DNA of 64,000 nt, from the NCBI RefSeq assembly GCF_054482595.1, contig NZ_CM137008.1; one strand, 5' to 3'. How positions within the stretch are numbered: position 1 is the stretch's first letter; every line of letters begins with the position of its first letter. A program made the position numbers and the translations under genes. Positions 3,041-43,820 of this stretch are shown one piece after another. The notes under the pieces were generated by a model that did not search any database, had not been told where the DNA came from, and worked only from the letters and a program-made list of their open reading frames with translations.

Positions 3041-3116
3041 TGGCTCCTCTGACTGGACTCGAACCAGTGACATACGGATTAACAGTCCGCCGTTCTACCG
3101 ACTGAACTACAGAGGA
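3041..3116 (-). tRNA. asnT: tRNA-Asn (GUU)
   Basis: Reverse complement reads TCCTCTGTAGTTCAGTCGGTAGAACGGCGGACTGTTAATCCGTATGTCACTGGTTCGAGTCCAGTCAGAGGAGCCA, a canonical cloverleaf with GTT anticodon. Confidence 0.9.
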
Positions 3117-4014: not shown

Positions 4015-4106
4015 CGTTTTGCTCGCAAACTCGTCACTTGAACAAAATTGCACGGACAGGGACTGTTAAAATGCCAAATTTCCTGGCATCATGGCAACCA
4101 TCTGAA

Positions 4107-4196
4107 CGGAGAGATGCCGGAGCGGCTGAACGGACCGGTCTCGAAAACCGGAGTGGGGGCAACTCCACCGGGGGTTCAAATCCCCCTCTCTCCGCC
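4107..4196 (+). tRNA. serU: tRNA-Ser (CGA), 90 nt with long variable arm; 3' part is the phage attachment core
   Basis: GGAGAGATGCCGGAGCGGCTGAACGGACCGGTCTCGAAAACCGG...GGTTCAAATCCCCCTCTCTCCGCCA; anticodon loop CTCGAAA. Confidence 0.9.
4135..4196. repeat. attL core: 62-bp direct repeat (2 mismatches) shared with attR
   Basis: cggtctcgaaaaccggagt[g/a]ggggcaactc[c/t]accgggggttcaaatccccctctctccgcca found at 4135-4196 and 43190-43251. Confidence 0.85.
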
Positions 4197-4243
4197 AAAA
4201 TTCAATCACTTACACATCATTAAGTCAGTGACAAAAATCACAC

Positions 4244-4278
4244 TTGGAATTACTTGGAATATTTTCTTGGAATATTTT
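4244..4278. promoter_or_regulatory. Three direct copies of TTGGAAT(ATTTTC): candidate integrase arm-type binding sites (P' arm)
   Basis: Copies at 4244, 4254, 4267; same motif at 43079-43089 and inverted at 43141-43150 near attR; overlaps int 3' end. Confidence 0.4.
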
Positions 4279-5275
4279 CAGGTAACGGGACATCAAGTGT
4301 TGGTGAAACTTTAACCTTCCTGTCATAGATTAGCACTTGCCCTTCGGTTTTGTGACCAGAGAAAAGTTGCTTATCCCGGCTGCTTCCTTCATAGTCTGAA
4401 ATTCCTTTCGCCTTCAGATCATGAAAGGTGAAGTCGGTTAAAATACCTGAAATTTTTCCAGCACGATTTCTTGCATCTACCCACATTTCGTTAAAGCCTT
4501 TGTACATATATCGGTTGCCGTATTGATTGCTGATCACATAGGCAGATTTTGGTAACTGTTTTGCTTTTTCGATCGCTGCCTGTAATCGTGGACTCCATGC
4601 TTTTATCTGTTTTTTTCCGGTTTTCCCTTGCTGGATGAATATCCCGTCGTTTCCAATCTGTTCCCATTTCAGCGATAACACATCGGAAACCCTCGCTGCA
4701 CACAGATAGGCAATTTCCATTGCGATAAAAACAGGAAGAGGTGCAACGCTTAATACTGCCTGGTATTCTTTGTCGGTTACATATCGTTCGCGGTTTTTGG
4801 CCTTGAATTTACTTACACCTGCACATGGGTTAGCCTTCACGTACCCTCGCTCATACCCCCAACTGTAAACACGGGACATACTGCTTTTTTCATGGTTGGC
4901 TTGCGTTTTACTCTGCTCCCCTCTTTTGTCCATGTATCGACGGATGTGTTCTGGTTTTATGGAATCCGCTGGTACCTTACCGAATACGGCAAGCAACTTT
5001 TTTTGATGTTGCAGATAATCTTTTTGTGTTCTTGGACTAAGGTCACTGTAATAGGCGCTGGCGAGGAATTTTTCCCACAAGCGACCGAATGTCATTGCAC
5101 GATCGCGATTATTTACAGTTTCCTCATACTTTTTCCATAAAGCAGCTAAACCATCCTTGATGGCGGTTAGTGTGACAGATTCTCTGGATGTTGGTTTCCA
5201 TACATAACTATATTTATTTGGGTATACATTTGGAGGTAATTTTTCGTGTTCAGGATTTTTCCTTCGTCTTCCCAT
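4250..5275 (-). CDS. int: Tyrosine recombinase / phage integrase
   Basis: 341-aa ORF adjacent to attL; C-terminal catalytic region with R...HxLR...Y-type residues (FTFHDLKAKG...LFSGHKTEGQVLIYDRK). Confidence 0.85.
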   Translation of the reverse strand: MGRRRKNPEHEKLPPNVYPNKYSYVWKPTSRESVTLTAIKDGLAALWKKYEETVNNRDRAMTFGRLWEKFLASAYYSDLSPRTQKDYLQHQKKLLAVFGKVPADSIKPEHIRRYMDKRGEQSKTQANHEKSSMSRVYSWGYERGYVKANPCAGVSKFKAKNRERYVTDKEYQAVLSVAPLPVFIAMEIAYLCAARVSDVLSLKWEQIGNDGIFIQQGKTGKKQIKAWSPRLQAAIEKAKQLPKSAYVISNQYGNRYMYKGFNEMWVDARNRAGKISGILTDFTFHDLKAKGISDYEGSSRDKQLFSGHKTEGQVLIYDRKVKVSPTLDVPLPENIPRKYSK

Positions 5276-8617: not shown

Positions 8618-8675
8618 AAAAAGGGCGGCAGAGCAGTCACGGAGTAAAACTGATACCGCCAAACGTCACCAGAAA
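8618..8675 (-). ncRNA. dicF: DicF small RNA (ftsZ-targeting sRNA of the dicB operon)
   Basis: Minus strand reads TTTCTGGTGACGTTTGGCGGTATCAGTTTTACTCCGTGACTGCTCTGCCGCCCTTTTT, matching remembered DicF with terminal hairpin and U-run. Confidence 0.7.
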
Positions 8676-11213: not shown

Positions 11214-12308
11214 ATGGCTAACGCCTGGCTCAGATTATGGCATGACATGCCAAATGACCCTAAGTGGCGAACAATTGCCAGGGTGTCAGGGCAGCCAATT
11301 GCAACAGTGATGGCAGTGTATATCCACCTCCTGGTGAGCGCGTCACGAAATGTCACGCGAGGTCACATTGATGTCACGACAGAAGATTTGGCAAGTGCGC
11401 TCGACGTGACAGAAGAGGTAATTGATTCAATTTTGCAGACGATGCAGGGGCGGGTACTTGATGGTGATTTAATCACTGGATGGGAAAAACGCCAGGTGCT
11501 TAAAGAGGACAACGGCAATATTTCGCAAACCGCAAAATCTCCTGCAGAGCGCAAGAGGGCGCAGCGAGAGAGGGAAAGAAAGCGGGAACAAAATGGCGAT
11601 TGTCACGGCGCGTCACGAAATGTCACGCACATGTCACGACGAGTCACGACAGATAAAGATACAGATAAAGATACAGATCAAGAAGATCAAAACACTATGG
11701 TCCATGGCGTAAAAAACGCCACGAACCAGGCAGGGGATGTTCAGACCGTCAATCTTGGTCAGCCAGCAGGCACGACACCGGAAGCCGATTCAGCGTATGC
11801 GCTGAAAGCCGATTCGGGCGCTGTGCAGCAGGTGATGACCGCAAGGCTGGAGCAATCACACCAACTGCAGCAGCCCGAAGCCGATTCCGCCATTCAGCGG
11901 GAAGCCGATTCCGCCATTCAGCGGGAAGCCGATCGGGTAGTCCCGGAAAACACCGGGCAGTCTGTGGGACGAGTGGATTATCCGGATGTGTTCGAACAGG
12001 TCTGGCGGGAGTACCCGTTGCGTGCCGGAGCAAACCCGAAGAAATCCGCTTTCAGTGCCTGGAAGGCCAGATTACGCGAGGGGGTGCCACCAGAGGCCAT
12101 GCTGGATGGCGTGAGGCGTTACGCAAGATACTTGGCGGCTACCGGGAAAACGGGAACGGAATTTGTTCAGCGAGCGACGACGTTTTTTGGACCGGACCGG
12201 AATTTTGAGAACCCCTGGTTGCTCCCGGTAAGCGGCACGAACAACCAGCGTTGTGTGAATCATATTTCTGAACCGGATAACGAAATTCCGCCGGGCTTCA
12301 GGGGGTAA
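11214..12308 (+). CDS. Putative replication initiation protein (O-like) with internal repeats
   Basis: ATG 11214 after SD agaagagg; contains two GTCACG iteron-like clusters and coding tandem repeats (DKDTDKDTD, EADSAIQR x2). Confidence 0.55.
   Translation: MANAWLRLWHDMPNDPKWRTIARVSGQPIATVMAVYIHLLVSASRNVTRGHIDVTTEDLASALDVTEEVIDSILQTMQGRVLDGDLITGWEKRQVLKEDNGNISQTAKSPAERKRAQRERERKREQNGDCHGASRNVTHMSRRVTTDKDTDKDTDQEDQNTMVHGVKNATNQAGDVQTVNLGQPAGTTPEADSAYALKADSGAVQQVMTARLEQSHQLQQPEADSAIQREADSAIQREADRVVPENTGQSVGRVDYPDVFEQVWREYPLRAGANPKKSAFSAWKARLREGVPPEAMLDGVRRYARYLAATGKTGTEFVQRATTFFGPDRNFENPWLLPVSGTNNQRCVNHISEPDNEIPPGFRG
11342..11380. repeat. Iteron-like cluster 1: four GTCAC(G/A) at ~10-11 bp spacing
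   Basis: GTCAC at 11342, 11352, 11362, 11373 inside the replication gene. Confidence 0.5.
11602..11650. repeat. Iteron-like cluster 2: five GTCACG at ~10-11 bp spacing
   Basis: GTCACG at 11602, 11612, 11622, 11633, 11643; cgtcacgaaatgtcacgc shared with cluster 1. Confidence 0.5.
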
Positions 12309-14222: not shown

Positions 14223-14376
14223 AAACGGTTTGCGGGAAAAGGAGAGTTAAGTAGAATTGCAGCGGGTGCTTGAGGCTATCTGTCTCAGGCATGAACACCA
14301 AAAGGCAGATAGAGAAAAGCCCCAGTTAACATTACGCGTCCTGCAAGACGCTTAACATTAATCTGAGGCTCAATCT

Positions 14377-14589
14377 ATGAACGGCAAATCTAGGTTAGCC
14401 TCTTACGTGCCGAAAGGCAAGGAGAAGCAGGCTATGAAGCAGCAAAAGGCGATGTTAATCGCCCTGATCGTCATCTGTTTAACCGTCATTGTGACGGCAC
14501 TGGTAACGAGGAAAGACCTCTGCGAGGTACGAATCCGAACCGGCCAGACGGAGGTCGCTGTCTTCACAGCTTACGAACCTGAGGAGTAA
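14377..14589 (+). CDS. mok: Mok-like leader ORF, in-frame N-terminal extension of hok
   Basis: 70-aa ORF MNGKSRLASYVPKGKEKQA... continuing into the Hok reading frame. Confidence 0.45.
   Translation: MNGKSRLASYVPKGKEKQAMKQQKAMLIALIVICLTVIVTALVTRKDLCEVRIRTGQTEVAVFTAYEPEE
14434..14589 (+). CDS. hok: Hok/Gef-family type I toxin
   Basis: 51 aa MKQQKAMLIALIVICLTVIVTALVTRKDLCEVRIRTGQTEVAVFTAYEPEE; complementary mRNA end elements at 14263-14276 and 14639-14653. Confidence 0.8.
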   Translation: MKQQKAMLIALIVICLTVIVTALVTRKDLCEVRIRTGQTEVAVFTAYEPEE

Positions 14590-18018: not shown

Positions 18019-18094
18019 GGCCCTTTAGCTCAGTGGTGAGAGCGAGCGACTCATAATCGCCAGGTCGCTGGTTCAAATCCAGCAAGGGCCACCA
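18019..18094 (+). tRNA. tRNA with CAU anticodon (Ile2/Met-like)
   Basis: GGCCCTTTAGCTCAGTGGTGAGAGCGAGCGACTCATAATCGCCAGGTCGCTGGTTCAAATCCAGCAAGGGCCACCA. Confidence 0.8.
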
Positions 18095-18095
18095 A

Positions 18096-18172
18096 CCGCC
18101 ACTAGCTCATCAGGAAAGAGCGTCAACCCTTTAAGTTGAGTGTGCGAGGTTCGAGTCCCCGGTGGCGGTCCA
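18096..18172 (+). tRNA. tRNA, anticodon read as UUU (Lys) but loop atypical; identity provisional
   Basis: Acceptor CCGCCAC/GTGGCGG, D and T arms, encoded CCA; anticodon loop CCTTTAA with C at position 33. Confidence 0.55.
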
Positions 18173-18174
18173 GT

Positions 18175-18250
<76 letters not shown>

Positions 18251-18253
18251 TAT

Positions 18254-18328
<75 letters not shown>

Positions 18329-39334: not shown

Positions 39335-42259
39335 GTGAATATGGCAGTAAAGATTTCAGGTGTACTGAAAGACGGCACAGGAAAACCGGTTCAGAACTGC
39401 ACAATCCAGCTGAAAGCAAAACGTAACAGCACCACGGTGGTGGTGAACACGCTGGCCTCAGAAAATCCGGATGAAGCCGGGCGTTACAGCATGGACGTTG
39501 AGTACGGTCAGTACAGCGTTATTCTGTTGGTGGAAGGATTCCCGCCGTCACATGCCGGGACCATCACCGTGTATGAAGATTCCCAACCCGGTACGCTGAA
39601 TGATTTTCTCGGTGCCATGACGGAGGATGATGCCCGTCCGGAGGCTCTGCGCCGTTTTGAACTGATGGTGGAAGAGGTGACGCGTAACGCGTCCGCGGTG
39701 GCACAGAACACGGCAGCCGCGAAGAAGTCAGCCAGTGATGCCGGCACATCTGCCCGTGAGGCGGCAACCCATGCGACTGATGCTGCAGGCTCAGCGCGTG
39801 CAGCCAGCACGTCAGCCGGACAGGCCGCGACTTCGGCTCAGGAGGCGTCTTCCAGCGCAGGAACGGCATCAACAAAGGCCACTGAAGCATCAAAAAGTGC
39901 TGCCGCTGCAGAGTCCTCAAAAAGCGCGGCGGCCACCAGTGCCGGTGCGGCGAAAACGTCAGAAACGAATGCTGCAGCGTCACAAAAATCAGCAGCCACT
40001 TCTGCATCCACTGCGACGACGAAAGCGTCAGAAGCCGCCACTTCAGCCAGAGATGCGGCGGCCTCCAAAGAGGCGGCAAAATCATCAGAAACGAACGCCT
40101 CCACAAGCGCCAGCAGTGCAGCCTCCTCGGCAACGGCGGCAGGAAATTCCGTGAAGGCGGCAAAAACGTCCGAGACGAATGCCAGGTCTTCTGAAACGGC
40201 AGCGGAACAGAGCGCCTCAGCTGCGGCAGACTCTGAGACAGCAGCTGCATCATCGGCCCGTGAGGCGTCCATTAAGGCAGAGGAGGCAGCAGTCAGTGCC
40301 ACCGCCGCCGGAAAATCGGCAGAAAGCGCCGCATCATCCGCTTCAACAGCCACAACGAAGGCTGGCGAAGCCACTGAACAGGCCAGCGCAGCAGCGAGGT
40401 CTGCTTCCGCAGCGAAGACATCCGAAACGAACGCGAAAGCGTCGGAAACCAGCGCAGAATCCTCAAAAACGGCTGCCGCATCGTCCGCCAGTTCGGCGGC
40501 GTCATCGGCATCATCTGCGTCTGCTTCAAAAGATGAGGCGACCAGACAGGCGTCAGCAGCGAGGGGCAGCGCCACGACGGCATCCACGAAGGCGACAGAG
40601 GCTGCTGGCAGTGCGGCAGCGGCAGCACAGAGCAAAAGTACGGCGGAATCCGCGGCAACGCGCGCCGAGACAGCAGCAAAACGGGCAGAGGATATTGCAT
40701 CCGCCGTGGCGCTTGAGGATGCGAGCACGACGAAAAAGGGGATAGTACAGCTCAGCAGTGCGACCAACAGCACTTCCGAGTCACAGGCGGCAACGCCAAA
40801 AGCCGTTAAGGCCGCGTATGACCTGGCTAACGGGAAATACACCGCACAGGATGCAACGACAGCACAGAAAGGGATAGTTCAGCTCAGCAGTGCGACTAAC
40901 AGCACTTCCGAGTCACAGGCGGCAACGCCAAAAGCCGTTAAGGCCGCGTATGACCTGGCTAACGGGAAATACACCGCACAGGACGCTACGACAGCACAAA
41001 AAGGAATTGTCCAGCTCAGTAGTGCAACCAACAGCACATCTGAAACGCTTGCTGCGACACCGAAAGCAGTGAAAGCAGCTAATGACAATGCGAATGGTCG
41101 GGTACCTTCTGCCCGTAAGGTGAATGGTAAGGCGCTTTCAGCGGATATAACACTGACGCCGAAAGATATTGGTACGCTTAACTCAACAACAATGTCATTC
41201 AGCGGTGGTGCTGGTTGGTTCAAATTAGCAACGGTAACCATGCCACAGGCGAGTTCTGTTGTTTCAATTACGTTGATTGGTGGCGCTGGATTTAACGTGG
41301 GGTCACCTCAACAGGCAGGTATATCTGAACTTGTTTTACGTGCAGGTAATGGTAATCCGAAGGGGATTACTGGTGCTTTATGGCAGCGCACATCGACAGG
41401 GTTTACAAATTTTGCCTGGGTCAATACATCTGGTGATACTTACGATATTTACGTTGCAATCGGAAATTATGCGACTGGTGTAAATATTCAATGGGATTAT
41501 ACCAGTAATGCCAGCGTGACGATTCATACGTCACCAGCATATTCTGCTAATAAGCCGGAAGGGTTAACGGACGGTACAGTTTATTCACTCTATACGCCAT
41601 CAGAGCAGTTTTATCCGCCTGGCGCACCAATCCCGTGGCCATCAGATACCGTTCCGTCTGGCTATGCCCTGATGCAGGGGCAGACTTTTGACAAATCTGC
41701 CTACCCGAAACTTGCAGCCGCTTATCCGTCAGGCGTGATCCCTGATATGCGTGGCTGGACGATTAAGGGCAAGCCCGCCAGTGGTCGTGCCGTATTATCT
41801 CAGGAACAGGACGGCATTAAATCGCATACCCACAGTGCCAGTGCATCCAGTACGGATTTGGGGACGAAAACCACATCGTCGTTTGATTACGGCACTAAAT
41901 CCACGAATAACACCGGAGCGCACACCCATAGTGTCAGTGGTACGGCTGCTTCTGCAGGGGCACATACACACACGGTTGCCTGTTACCCATCTGGCAATAC
42001 CGAGCAGGGCGATAAAGCCCTCAAAGGTGCGTCTCGTGCAGGCTCGAGTACTGGCACATCGTCAGCCGGAGCGCATACCCACCCGGTGTCAGGTACTGCT
42101 GCAAGTGCAGGTGCACACGCGCATACTGTCGGTATTGGTGCTCATACGCACTCCGTTGCGATTGGCTCACACGGACACACCATCACCGTTAACGCTGCTG
42201 GTAACGCGGAAAACACCGTCAAAAACATCGCATTTAACTATATTGTGAGGCTTGCATAA
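39335..42259 (+). CDS. stf: Side tail fibre protein with long Ala/Ser/Thr-rich repeat region, three tandem ~41-aa repeats and His-rich C-terminus
   Basis: 974 aa; repeats [25 protein letters not shown]; C-terminal [18 protein letters not shown] repeats. Confidence 0.75.
40735..41100 (+). repeat. Three tandem ~123-bp coding repeats inside stf
   Basis: Units at ~40735, ~40858, ~40981; first two near-identical. Confidence 0.7.
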
Positions 42260-42843
42260 TGGCATTCAGAATGAGTGAACAACCACGGACCATAACAATT
42301 TATAATCTGCTGGCCGGAACTAATGAATTTATTGGTGAAGGTGACGCATACATTCCGCCTCATACAGGTCTGCCAGCAAACAGTACCGATATTGCACCGC
42401 CAGATATTCCGGCTGGCTTCGTGGCTGTTTTCAACAGTGATGAGGCATCGTGGCATCTTGTTGAAGACCATCGGGGTAAAACAGTTTATGACGTGGCATC
42501 AGGGAACGCGTTATTTATTTCTGAACTCGGCTCATTACCGGAAAATGTTACCTGGTTATCCCCGGCAGGGGAGTTTCAGAAGTGGAACGGCACAGCCTGG
42601 GTGAAGGATACGGAAGCAGAAAAACTGTTCCGGATCCGGGAGGCGGAAGAAACAAAAAACAGCCTGATGCAGGTAGCCAGTGAGCATATAGCGCCGCTTC
42701 AGGATGCTGTAGATCTGGAGATCGCAACGGAGGAAGAAAACTCGTTGCTGGAAGCCTGGAAAAAGTATCGGGTGTTGCTGAACCGTGTTGACACATCAAC
42801 TGCACCTGATATTGAGTGGCCGGAAGAACCAGACACAATGTAA
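42259..42843 (+). CDS. tfa: Tail fibre assembly protein
   Basis: 194 aa; start overlaps stf stop (ATAATGG). Confidence 0.7.
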
Positions 42844-43189
42844 GCGAAAAAGAAAAACCGCAGACACGACGTATGCAGGACGTGCTGCGGTTGGCTGGTG
42901 AACTTTCGATAGTGCGAGTATTGAATGATTTCCAGCCGTTACCGATTTTATATAACTGCAGTGGAATTATTCAACACACAGGCAAAACGGAATAAGCTGA
43001 GAAAAAAGCGTGCTTTCCCAATCTGGGGCAAATCACGTCTGAATGACACCTGAAAACAGGTGGTGGACTCAAGACGGCTTGGAATATTCTTCTTTAATGT
43101 TATGTAATTCATTGATTTTTCGTGTACGATTTTAAGACATTTATTCCAAGAAAAATTTTTAACTCTTTGATTTTTCGACTCTGTATCAT

Positions 43190-43251
43190 CGGTCTCGAAA
43201 ACCGGAGTAGGGGCAACTCTACCGGGGGTTCAAATCCCCCTCTCTCCGCCA
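43190..43251. repeat. attR core: partial serU 3' end (62 bp)
   Basis: Direct repeat of 4135-4196 with 2 paired differences. Confidence 0.85.
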
Positions 43252-43820
43252 CTTTATCAATGACTTATCTCCCGACTTCCCGCCTTGCTTTTCCTAAACA
43301 GAACAATCGTAGAATATTCTTGAAGGGTTAGATCGTCACTGTTTTCTGTTCGATACTGTGACATTCAGCACTTGATTCGCTATGGATCTGACAGGAAGCT
43401 TTCGAGCGAAAATGTGCAGTTATTCAGTCGTTTTCTTATCGCTCACCATTATTCTTTTAGACATTCATCCTATGAAACTGCCGCAAAGTTGGTGGTGGGA
43501 ACTGAAGTTGCGTAGAGAAGGGTTCAATAATTGAGTCAAAAAAGGAACGCGGCCGTCAGATTAAAGCCGCGGGACAAAGTCCATAATTTCCAAGAGTTGT
43601 TGAATTTCCCAGCTTTTTTGAAAGCCTTTGTATCATACTAACAAGTAAAAAAGGTTTAAATACCAAAATTAACCTGTATTTTTGATAAGTCTTACCATTG
43701 TACGATTTACACAGTTTCTGCTCCTCCTTGTTGATAGTGGAAAGGGTGCATTGTGCACTTGCGTAAACATTTATGACGCGTTGATGTCCATGGTTCACAT
43801 TTCCTTGTCAGGGGATCGAC

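Follow-up and report, generated by a model that had tools for sequence, protein, structure and literature searches.

Predicted lambda-style arm-type integrase sites in a common lambdoid prophage of Escherichia coli integrated at serU

Background

The closest described counterparts of the attachment site studied here are those of phage lambda and of the E. coli prophage KplE1 (CPS-53). We read lambda attP from its own sequence with the annotated Int binding sites, judging P1 and P'3 by eye. In this reading, with distances taken from the core centre, P'1 (+59), P'2 (+69) and the weaker P1 have the direct orientation and P2 (-106) the inverted one, and the int stop codon falls within P'3. In the IntS/TorI system of KplE1, integrated at the tRNA gene argW, the P' arm sites by the int gene have been mapped experimentally (PMC2951348); they overlap the intS promoter and mediate autorepression (PMC2951348).

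We studied a stretch of 64,000 nucleotides (hereafter the window) that carries a lambdoid prophage at the tRNA gene serU. Read in the P-O-P' sense, its predicted arm sites have the same order and orientation as those of lambda, with P1 direct, P2 inverted and P'1 to P'3 direct. Both systems have the int stop codon within a P' site (P'3 in lambda, P'1 in the window), P' sites about a helical turn apart, xis upstream of int, an attP of about 250 bp and sites of the IHF type, by consensus match only, between P1 and P2 and between P2 and the core, and the two Int proteins are full-length homologues. Unlike lambda, the window has as its core the anticodon stem-loop of a tRNA-Ser, and its attP carries about 50 bp of the tRNA 3' end, for which reason the P' sites lie farther out (+104 to +127, against +59 to +80 in lambda). 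P2 lies at -51 instead of -106, the arm word is CTTGGAATWW instead of C/AAGTCACTAT, Int shares only about 20% identity with its lambda counterpart and has a Lys where lambda has R311, and Xis is a DUF4224 protein, unlike that of lambda. Like KplE1, the prophage lies at a tRNA gene of E. coli and has a heterobivalent Int, with IHF and RDF involvement (PMC2951348), here as predicted; the predicted sites overlap the 3' end of int, whereas those of KplE1 overlap its promoter. The int gene of the window is transcribed towards attL, as in lambda, and the consensus words and the RDF family differ from those of KplE1.

The serU prophage and its attachment core

The window is E. coli chromosome, in which asnT is followed by mtfA and then serU; Rfam places DsrA and RseX downstream of the serU region. 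A direct repeat of 62 nt (repeat family D2, 97% identity) flanks the lambdoid prophage of about 39 kb (Table 1). At attL the gene for tRNA-Ser(CGA) is rebuilt, and the phage-derived part of it is the 3' portion, from 4155 on. Unoccupied K-12-type genomes match the query only in the tRNA part of attR.

Table 1. Genes, attachment sites and predicted protein binding sites of the serU prophage in the 64-kb window. Distances are from the centre of the anticodon loop in the P-O-P' sense.
Feature	Position	Strand	Remarks
asnT	3041-3116	-	followed by mtfA, then serU
serU, tRNA-Ser(CGA), rebuilt at attL	4108-4197	+	ARAGORN; Rfam tRNA
attL copy of the 62-nt att repeat	4136-4197	+	first mismatch to the attR copy at 4155
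Candidate H' (IHF) site, ATTCAATCACTTA	4200-4212	+	one mismatch to WATCAANNNNTTR; about 63 bp from the loop centre
P'1, predicted arm-type site, CTTGGAATTA	4243-4252	+	centre at +104; overlaps the int stop codon (4250-4252)
P'2, predicted arm-type site, CTTGGAATAT	4253-4262	+	centre at +114; within the last int codons
P'3, predicted arm-type site, CTTGGAATAT	4266-4275	+	centre at +127; within the last int codons
int, lambda-type tyrosine integrase, 341 aa	4250-5275	-	ORF; Pfam PF00589, E 1.7e-11
xis-like gene, DUF4224, 67 aa	5275-5478	-	overlaps the int start; Pfam PF13986, E 1.5e-16; PHROG 1266 'excisionase', E 5e-22
P1, predicted arm-type site, CTTGGAATAT	43078-43087	+	at -115 (loop centre 43197); oriented like the P' sites
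H1-like site, exact IHF consensus, AATCAATGAATTA	43105-43117	-	between P1 and P2
P2, predicted arm-type site, CTTGGAATAA	43141-43150	-	-51; inverted
H2-like site, exact IHF consensus, AATCAAAGAGTTA	43160-43172	-	between P2 and the core
attR copy of the att repeat	43190-43251	+	core and original bacterial serU 3' part

The two copies of the att repeat differ at just two positions (4155 and 4167 against 43209 and 43221), which form a compensated pair in the variable arm of the tRNA-Ser, G-C in the phage-borne copy at attL and A-T in the chromosomal, K-12-type copy at attR. Because these mismatches compensate each other, the reconstituted serU should stay functional. The same two mismatches place strand exchange within the first 19 bp of the repeat, 4136-4154 (CGGTCTCGAAAACCGGAGT). 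This segment is the anticodon stem-loop, CCGGT-CTCGAAA-ACCGG, whose loop CTCGAAA (4140-4146) we presume to be the 7-bp overlap, with the stem halves CCGGT and ACCGG as the core-type sites.

A repeated word in both prophage arms

The first-pass annotation had pointed to TTGGAAT near both prophage ends, in three direct copies inside attL overlapping the 3' end of int and in a direct and an inverted copy inside attR, and had read it as a candidate arm-type site of Int. Exact copies stand in all of these places (4244, 4254, 4267 and 43079 on the plus strand, 43143 on the minus strand), and the repeated unit is longer than first described: CTTGGAAT, extended CTTGGAATWW, occurs exactly five times in the 64 kb, always in the prophage arms (4243, 4253, 4266 and 43078 on the plus strand, 43143 on the minus strand). 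Further copies of CTTGGAAT with up to two mismatches were sought in both arms and none was found. The distance of the words from the att repeats, on the prophage side, is 46-76 bp at attL and 40-47 and 104-111 bp at attR. Copies 4254 and 4267 encode the last residues of Int (..ENIPRKYSK*), and copy 4244 touches the stop codon. The placement had also been called symmetric, which is wrong, as one arm has three direct copies and the other one direct and one inverted copy.

The objection that the word might be common elsewhere in AT-rich phage DNA was tested and fails. TTGGAAT is under-represented, with 6 copies in the 64 kb against 12.6 expected from shuffles; the sole copy outside the arms (48634, plus strand) lies beyond the prophage, and the rest of the 39-kb prophage is free of it. 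Chance occurrence of a common AT-rich word is ruled out by this under-representation and by the absence from the remaining prophage. When the word was defined from the triple repeat at attL alone, the finding of two further copies within 150 bp inside attR had P = 5e-4 in composition-matched shuffles, and none of 6287 other 150-bp windows contained two copies.

The five CTTGGAATWW words are thus, very probably, the arm-type sites P1, P2 and P'1 to P'3 of the lambda-type integrase of the prophage. This prediction, made by comparison, agrees with the first reading of the motif and draws on the rarity of the word, the homology to lambda Int, the lambda layout, the kept positions and the footprinting (see below). 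The predicted arm sites of the serU prophage are lambda-style and ordinary in kind, and were previously undescribed for this common prophage family; our literature search, which covered serU prophages and their arm-type sites as well as TTGGAAT in connection with an integrase, found nothing specific.

The IHF consensus WATCAANNNNTTR has 7 exact matches in the 64 kb against 2.7 expected, among them the H1-like and H2-like sites of the P arm. The candidate H' site in the P' arm is situated roughly midway between the core and P'3, and relatives with other arm words (see below) retain GTAAGTGNTTGAA at this position beside the tRNA end; we name it H' tentatively. An 11-bp repeat, TTGATTTTTCG, has two copies in the P arm, and a diverged O157 variant keeps just its IHF-like part, TGATTTT; for this reason we assign the repeat to IHF and not to Xis. 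A third exact IHF consensus, TATCAATGACTTA (43255-43267), belongs to the B' side of attB, where it lies in bacterial DNA directly past the 3' end of serU.

With these elements, excision would join both arms around the anticodon-stem-loop core of tRNA-Ser(CGA), and the resulting attP would measure about 250 bp. In Int, the N-terminal domain (about residues 1-62) would be the part that binds the words, and the C-terminal domains would bind and cut the core. Bends of the IHF type, at the two exact consensus sites of the P arm and the near-consensus site of the P' arm, would fold the arms back, such that one Int molecule could bridge an arm site and a core site; a sharp bend at 4200-4212 could, by the geometry we infer, return the P' sites over the core. 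By analogy with lambda, differing subsets of the five sites, together with the DUF4224 Xis, would direct integration or excision.

Integrase and excisionase

A profile of Int and five relatives matched full-length lambda Int in the PDB (1Z1B, 1Z1G and 5J0N) from residue 1, with E 1e-20. With a profile of the N-terminal 67 residues only, the best PDB match was 1KJK, the arm-binding domain of lambda Int (E 0.024), and the Pfam family Arm-DNA-bind_1 (PF09003) matched the N-domain with E 0.016, below the Pfam cut-off; as both values are near 0.02, sequence comparison would assign the N-domain to arm binding only tentatively. The AF2 model of Int (pLDDT 84.5, about 86 in the N-domain) has strands at 17-19, 23-26 and 34-38 followed by a helix at 39-59, and three strands and a helix, as modelled, is the topology of the lambda arm-binding domain. 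The top Foldseek matches of the model were full-length lambda Int (1Z1B_A, E 5e-15, 364 columns); against the lambda Int constructs of residues 75-356 about 300 columns were aligned. Being of the three-domain, lambda-type (heterobivalent) class, Int should therefore need arm-type sites.

The inferred catalytic residues of Int are R195, K218, H285, K288, H308 and Y317, of which R195, K218, H285, H308 and Y317 are invariant in 20 relatives in the alignment to lambda Int. Lys288 (motif FHDLKAKG, window positions 4412-4414) aligns with lambda R311, the second catalytic Arg, and is likewise invariant in 20 of 20 relatives. The family with this Lys is clearly active, since the attL and attR junctions were produced and an intact attP is present in the locus L032.

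Conservation of the arms in E. coli

The int/P' arm was found in 1147 of 5426 complete E. coli genomes, about a fifth, including O157:H7, O55:H7, O111 and O103, and the attR arm in 892 of the 5426. We used for footprinting an alignment (A2) of 8 P arms, one of them a strongly diverged O157:H7 copy. The invariant blocks of these 8 arms include GCTTGGAATATTCT (P1), TGATTTTTC (the H1-like site), ATTTATTCCAA (P2), TTGATTTT (H2-like) and the core. The O157 variant also has an exact IHF consensus in TTGATTTT, though its spacer bases differ. Homology of the P arms ends just outside P1, which is the outer limit of the conserved attP.

On the other side, in the P' arms of Int variants with DNA identity as low as 82%, the flanking int codons change but the words are retained. 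The words are coding DNA in the window and stand after the stop codon in most relatives, and the C-terminal tail of Int that they encode is unconserved and of low model confidence. Words kept in both coding and non-coding DNA, with an unconserved encoded tail, indicate therefore selection on the DNA and not on the protein. The conservation of the motif among prophages sharing this integrase, proposed earlier as a check, was in this way examined with a positive outcome.

The number of P' copies varies: four in O157:H7 EC4115 (L094), with an extra 13-bp unit, and two in strain 131 (L095) and in L021. Alleles with two copies arise by deletion of 13 bp or 10 bp, and each change of copy number shifts the C-terminal reading frame of Int.

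Two other arrangements of the P arm were observed. In E. coli O111:H11 88.0502 (L089/L099) a prophage ends beside uspF-ompN and not serU, with a P arm that is almost identical and includes P1, P2 and the two IHF-like sites; the sequence follows the core through CGGTCTCGAAA and then diverges (CCCGTAGCC...). This junction may have arisen at a secondary attachment site or by mosaicism; its point of departure would put the crossover in or beside the anticodon-loop overlap. In E. coli AR_0017 a phage-type core follows the P arm, with other sequence past the tRNA end (CCAATCATTCAACAAAATCAA), which points to tandem or hybrid prophages at serU.

Related integrases keep the positions and change the word

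Phages whose Int is 48-68% identical to that of the window have 3-4 direct repeats at the int 3' end and further copies beyond the tRNA-derived core. These relatives (118970_sal3, Kp4885-3, ST101-KPC2phi6.3, vB_SmeS_BUCT709, mEp390 and Evi) share the Int family and the DUF4224 Xis. Several of these tRNA-integrating phages use the same serU site as the window, but each lineage has its own arm word, and the N-domains have diverged. The word is ATTCTAAG in BUCT709, TTTTCTCA in Salmonella phage 118970_sal3 and Klebsiella phages Kp4885-3 and ST101-KPC2phi6.3, TATACCAAG/C in Escherichia phage Evi and the IMG/VR loci L068 and L056, and ATGGCGAA in mEp390.

For the relatives, positions refer to the int-sense orientation, with the anticodon-loop centre as zero. 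In this frame the sites of the window are at -127/-114/-104/+51/+115, and the same five values were obtained for L032, which has a 99% identical Int and an intact attP. The corresponding positions are -127/-114/-104/+50/+114 in 118970_sal3 (TTTCTCA) and -128/-115/-104/+50/+114 in BUCT709 (ATTCTAA); mEp390 (TGGCGAA) has +49/+115 plus four P' copies. The copy near +50 is inverted and that near +115 direct in every one of these five. Positions held to 1-2 bp with the word replaced on both arms are what one would expect of sites that a co-evolving protein reads. The P-arm copies of BUCT709 are degenerate (ATTCTAT and ATTCTTT). Evi is an exception: its attP has the opposite orientation with respect to int, and a copy at +50 is lacking.

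The sequence of many IMG/VR loci goes no further than the int stop codon and so does not include the arms. In seven relatives (L050, L057, L061, L063, L064, L065 and L067, of four distinct sequence types) other sequence follows int, and no att site, repeated word or tRNA fragment was found within 700 bp of it. The records examined for the related phages annotate no individual Int-binding sites; that of mEp390 has a putative attP only.

Which protein reads the word

We compared the identity of the Int N-domain (residues 1-62) with that of the rest of Int. The window and L051, which have the same word, are 77% identical in the N-domain and 67% in the rest. With different words, the values are 53% and 76% for L051 and BUCT709 (L002), and about 35% and about 65% for the window and the TTTTCTCA group. 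The arm word appears thus to track the N-domain and not the catalytic domain of Int, which fits recognition by the N-domain. It could instead be the DUF4224 Xis, as recombination directionality factor, that binds the words, since Xis co-varies with them too: its identity is 54% for window/L051, 79% for L003/L004 and 51% for L060/L005, all pairs with the same word, and roughly 20-48% for pairs with different words. Covariation was consequently discarded as a discriminator, as alone it cannot assign the words to Int rather than Xis, and co-inheritance is expected anyway from the position of xis next to the 5' end of int. Direct repeats about a helical turn apart are also typical of Xis sites; the lambda Xis sites X1 and X2 are direct repeats with about this spacing. 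To our knowledge, however, the Xis sites of characterised lambda-type systems are confined to one arm, while the word is found in both arms, with 39 kb of prophage in between, in the exact order and orientation of the lambda Int sites P1, P2 and P'1 to P'3. We consider it improbable, then, that Xis and not Int is the protein that reads the words.

Two readings without a recombination protein have to be weighed against the same layout. The triple repeat might be a functionless by-product of replication slippage at the int 3' end, with the copies at attR coincidental. The variation of the P' copy number to four or two through changes by 13- or 10-bp units speaks for slippage, but the shuffle probability of the attR pair (see above), the invariance of the words within diverged arms and the five other lineages with their own word at the same positions in both arms speak against it, and we give this reading hardly any credence. 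Equally far-fetched, in our judgement, is a role of the repeats in transcriptional or post-transcriptional control of int, as a terminator, an operator of a different regulator or a retroregulator similar to sib, which in lambda is in the region beyond attP. Their location at the very 3' end of int would suit such an element; an RNA element at a 3' end, however, would have no need of the other arm's inverted and direct copies at a distance of 39 kb. A search of 4100-4500 gave no terminator-like or promoter-like site, and no Rfam family overlaps either arm.

Implications

Given the presence of the int/P' arm in about a fifth of the complete E. coli genomes, the anatomy of the predicted att site, with Int arm-type sites on both sides of the core, is of consequence for how stable and how mobile a very common family of lambdoid prophages is. 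The mechanism is textbook lambda biology, so that the annotation is refined and the concepts are unchanged. The conserved geometry, the exchanged words and the matching changes of the N-domain make up a natural data set on how arm domains read DNA, useful also for designing orthogonal integrase/attP pairs.

A more speculative proposal, which we regard as rather unlikely, is that a specificity cassette made up of the word, the N-domain of Int and Xis can be swapped on a rigid scaffold of positions (about -127/-114/-104/+50/+115 from the anticodon loop), and that slippage of the P' repeats by 10 or 13 bp (2, 3 or 4 copies among E. coli strains in nature) could serve as a heritable tuner of the frequency of integration and excision. 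If it held, the natural words, at least five, would be a ready-made series of orthogonal integrases, and P' slippage would alter the number of arm sites and the C-terminal tail of Int together.

Other features of the prophage

A cluster of TGTCACG/GTCACGA repeats is located at 11338-11651, with 11-12 copies in the window and at least three within 40 bp. Two exact 21-mers, GCGCGTCACGAAATGTCACGC, also occur there, separated by 270 bp. These repeats resemble iterons or operators and are perhaps a replication origin or a regulator array. Near the right end of the prophage (40716-41111) a unit of 132 nt is repeated three times in tandem, the copies being 100%, 92% and 64% identical to the reference one. 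At 18019-18328 the phage carries four tRNA genes side by side, for Met(CAT), Lys(TTT), Thr(TGT) and Gly(TCC). Rfam matches within the prophage were DicF antisense RNA (8623-8674), sok antitoxin RNA (14264-14439) and 'IS009' RNA (42602-42800), the last of which ends about 280 bp from P1.
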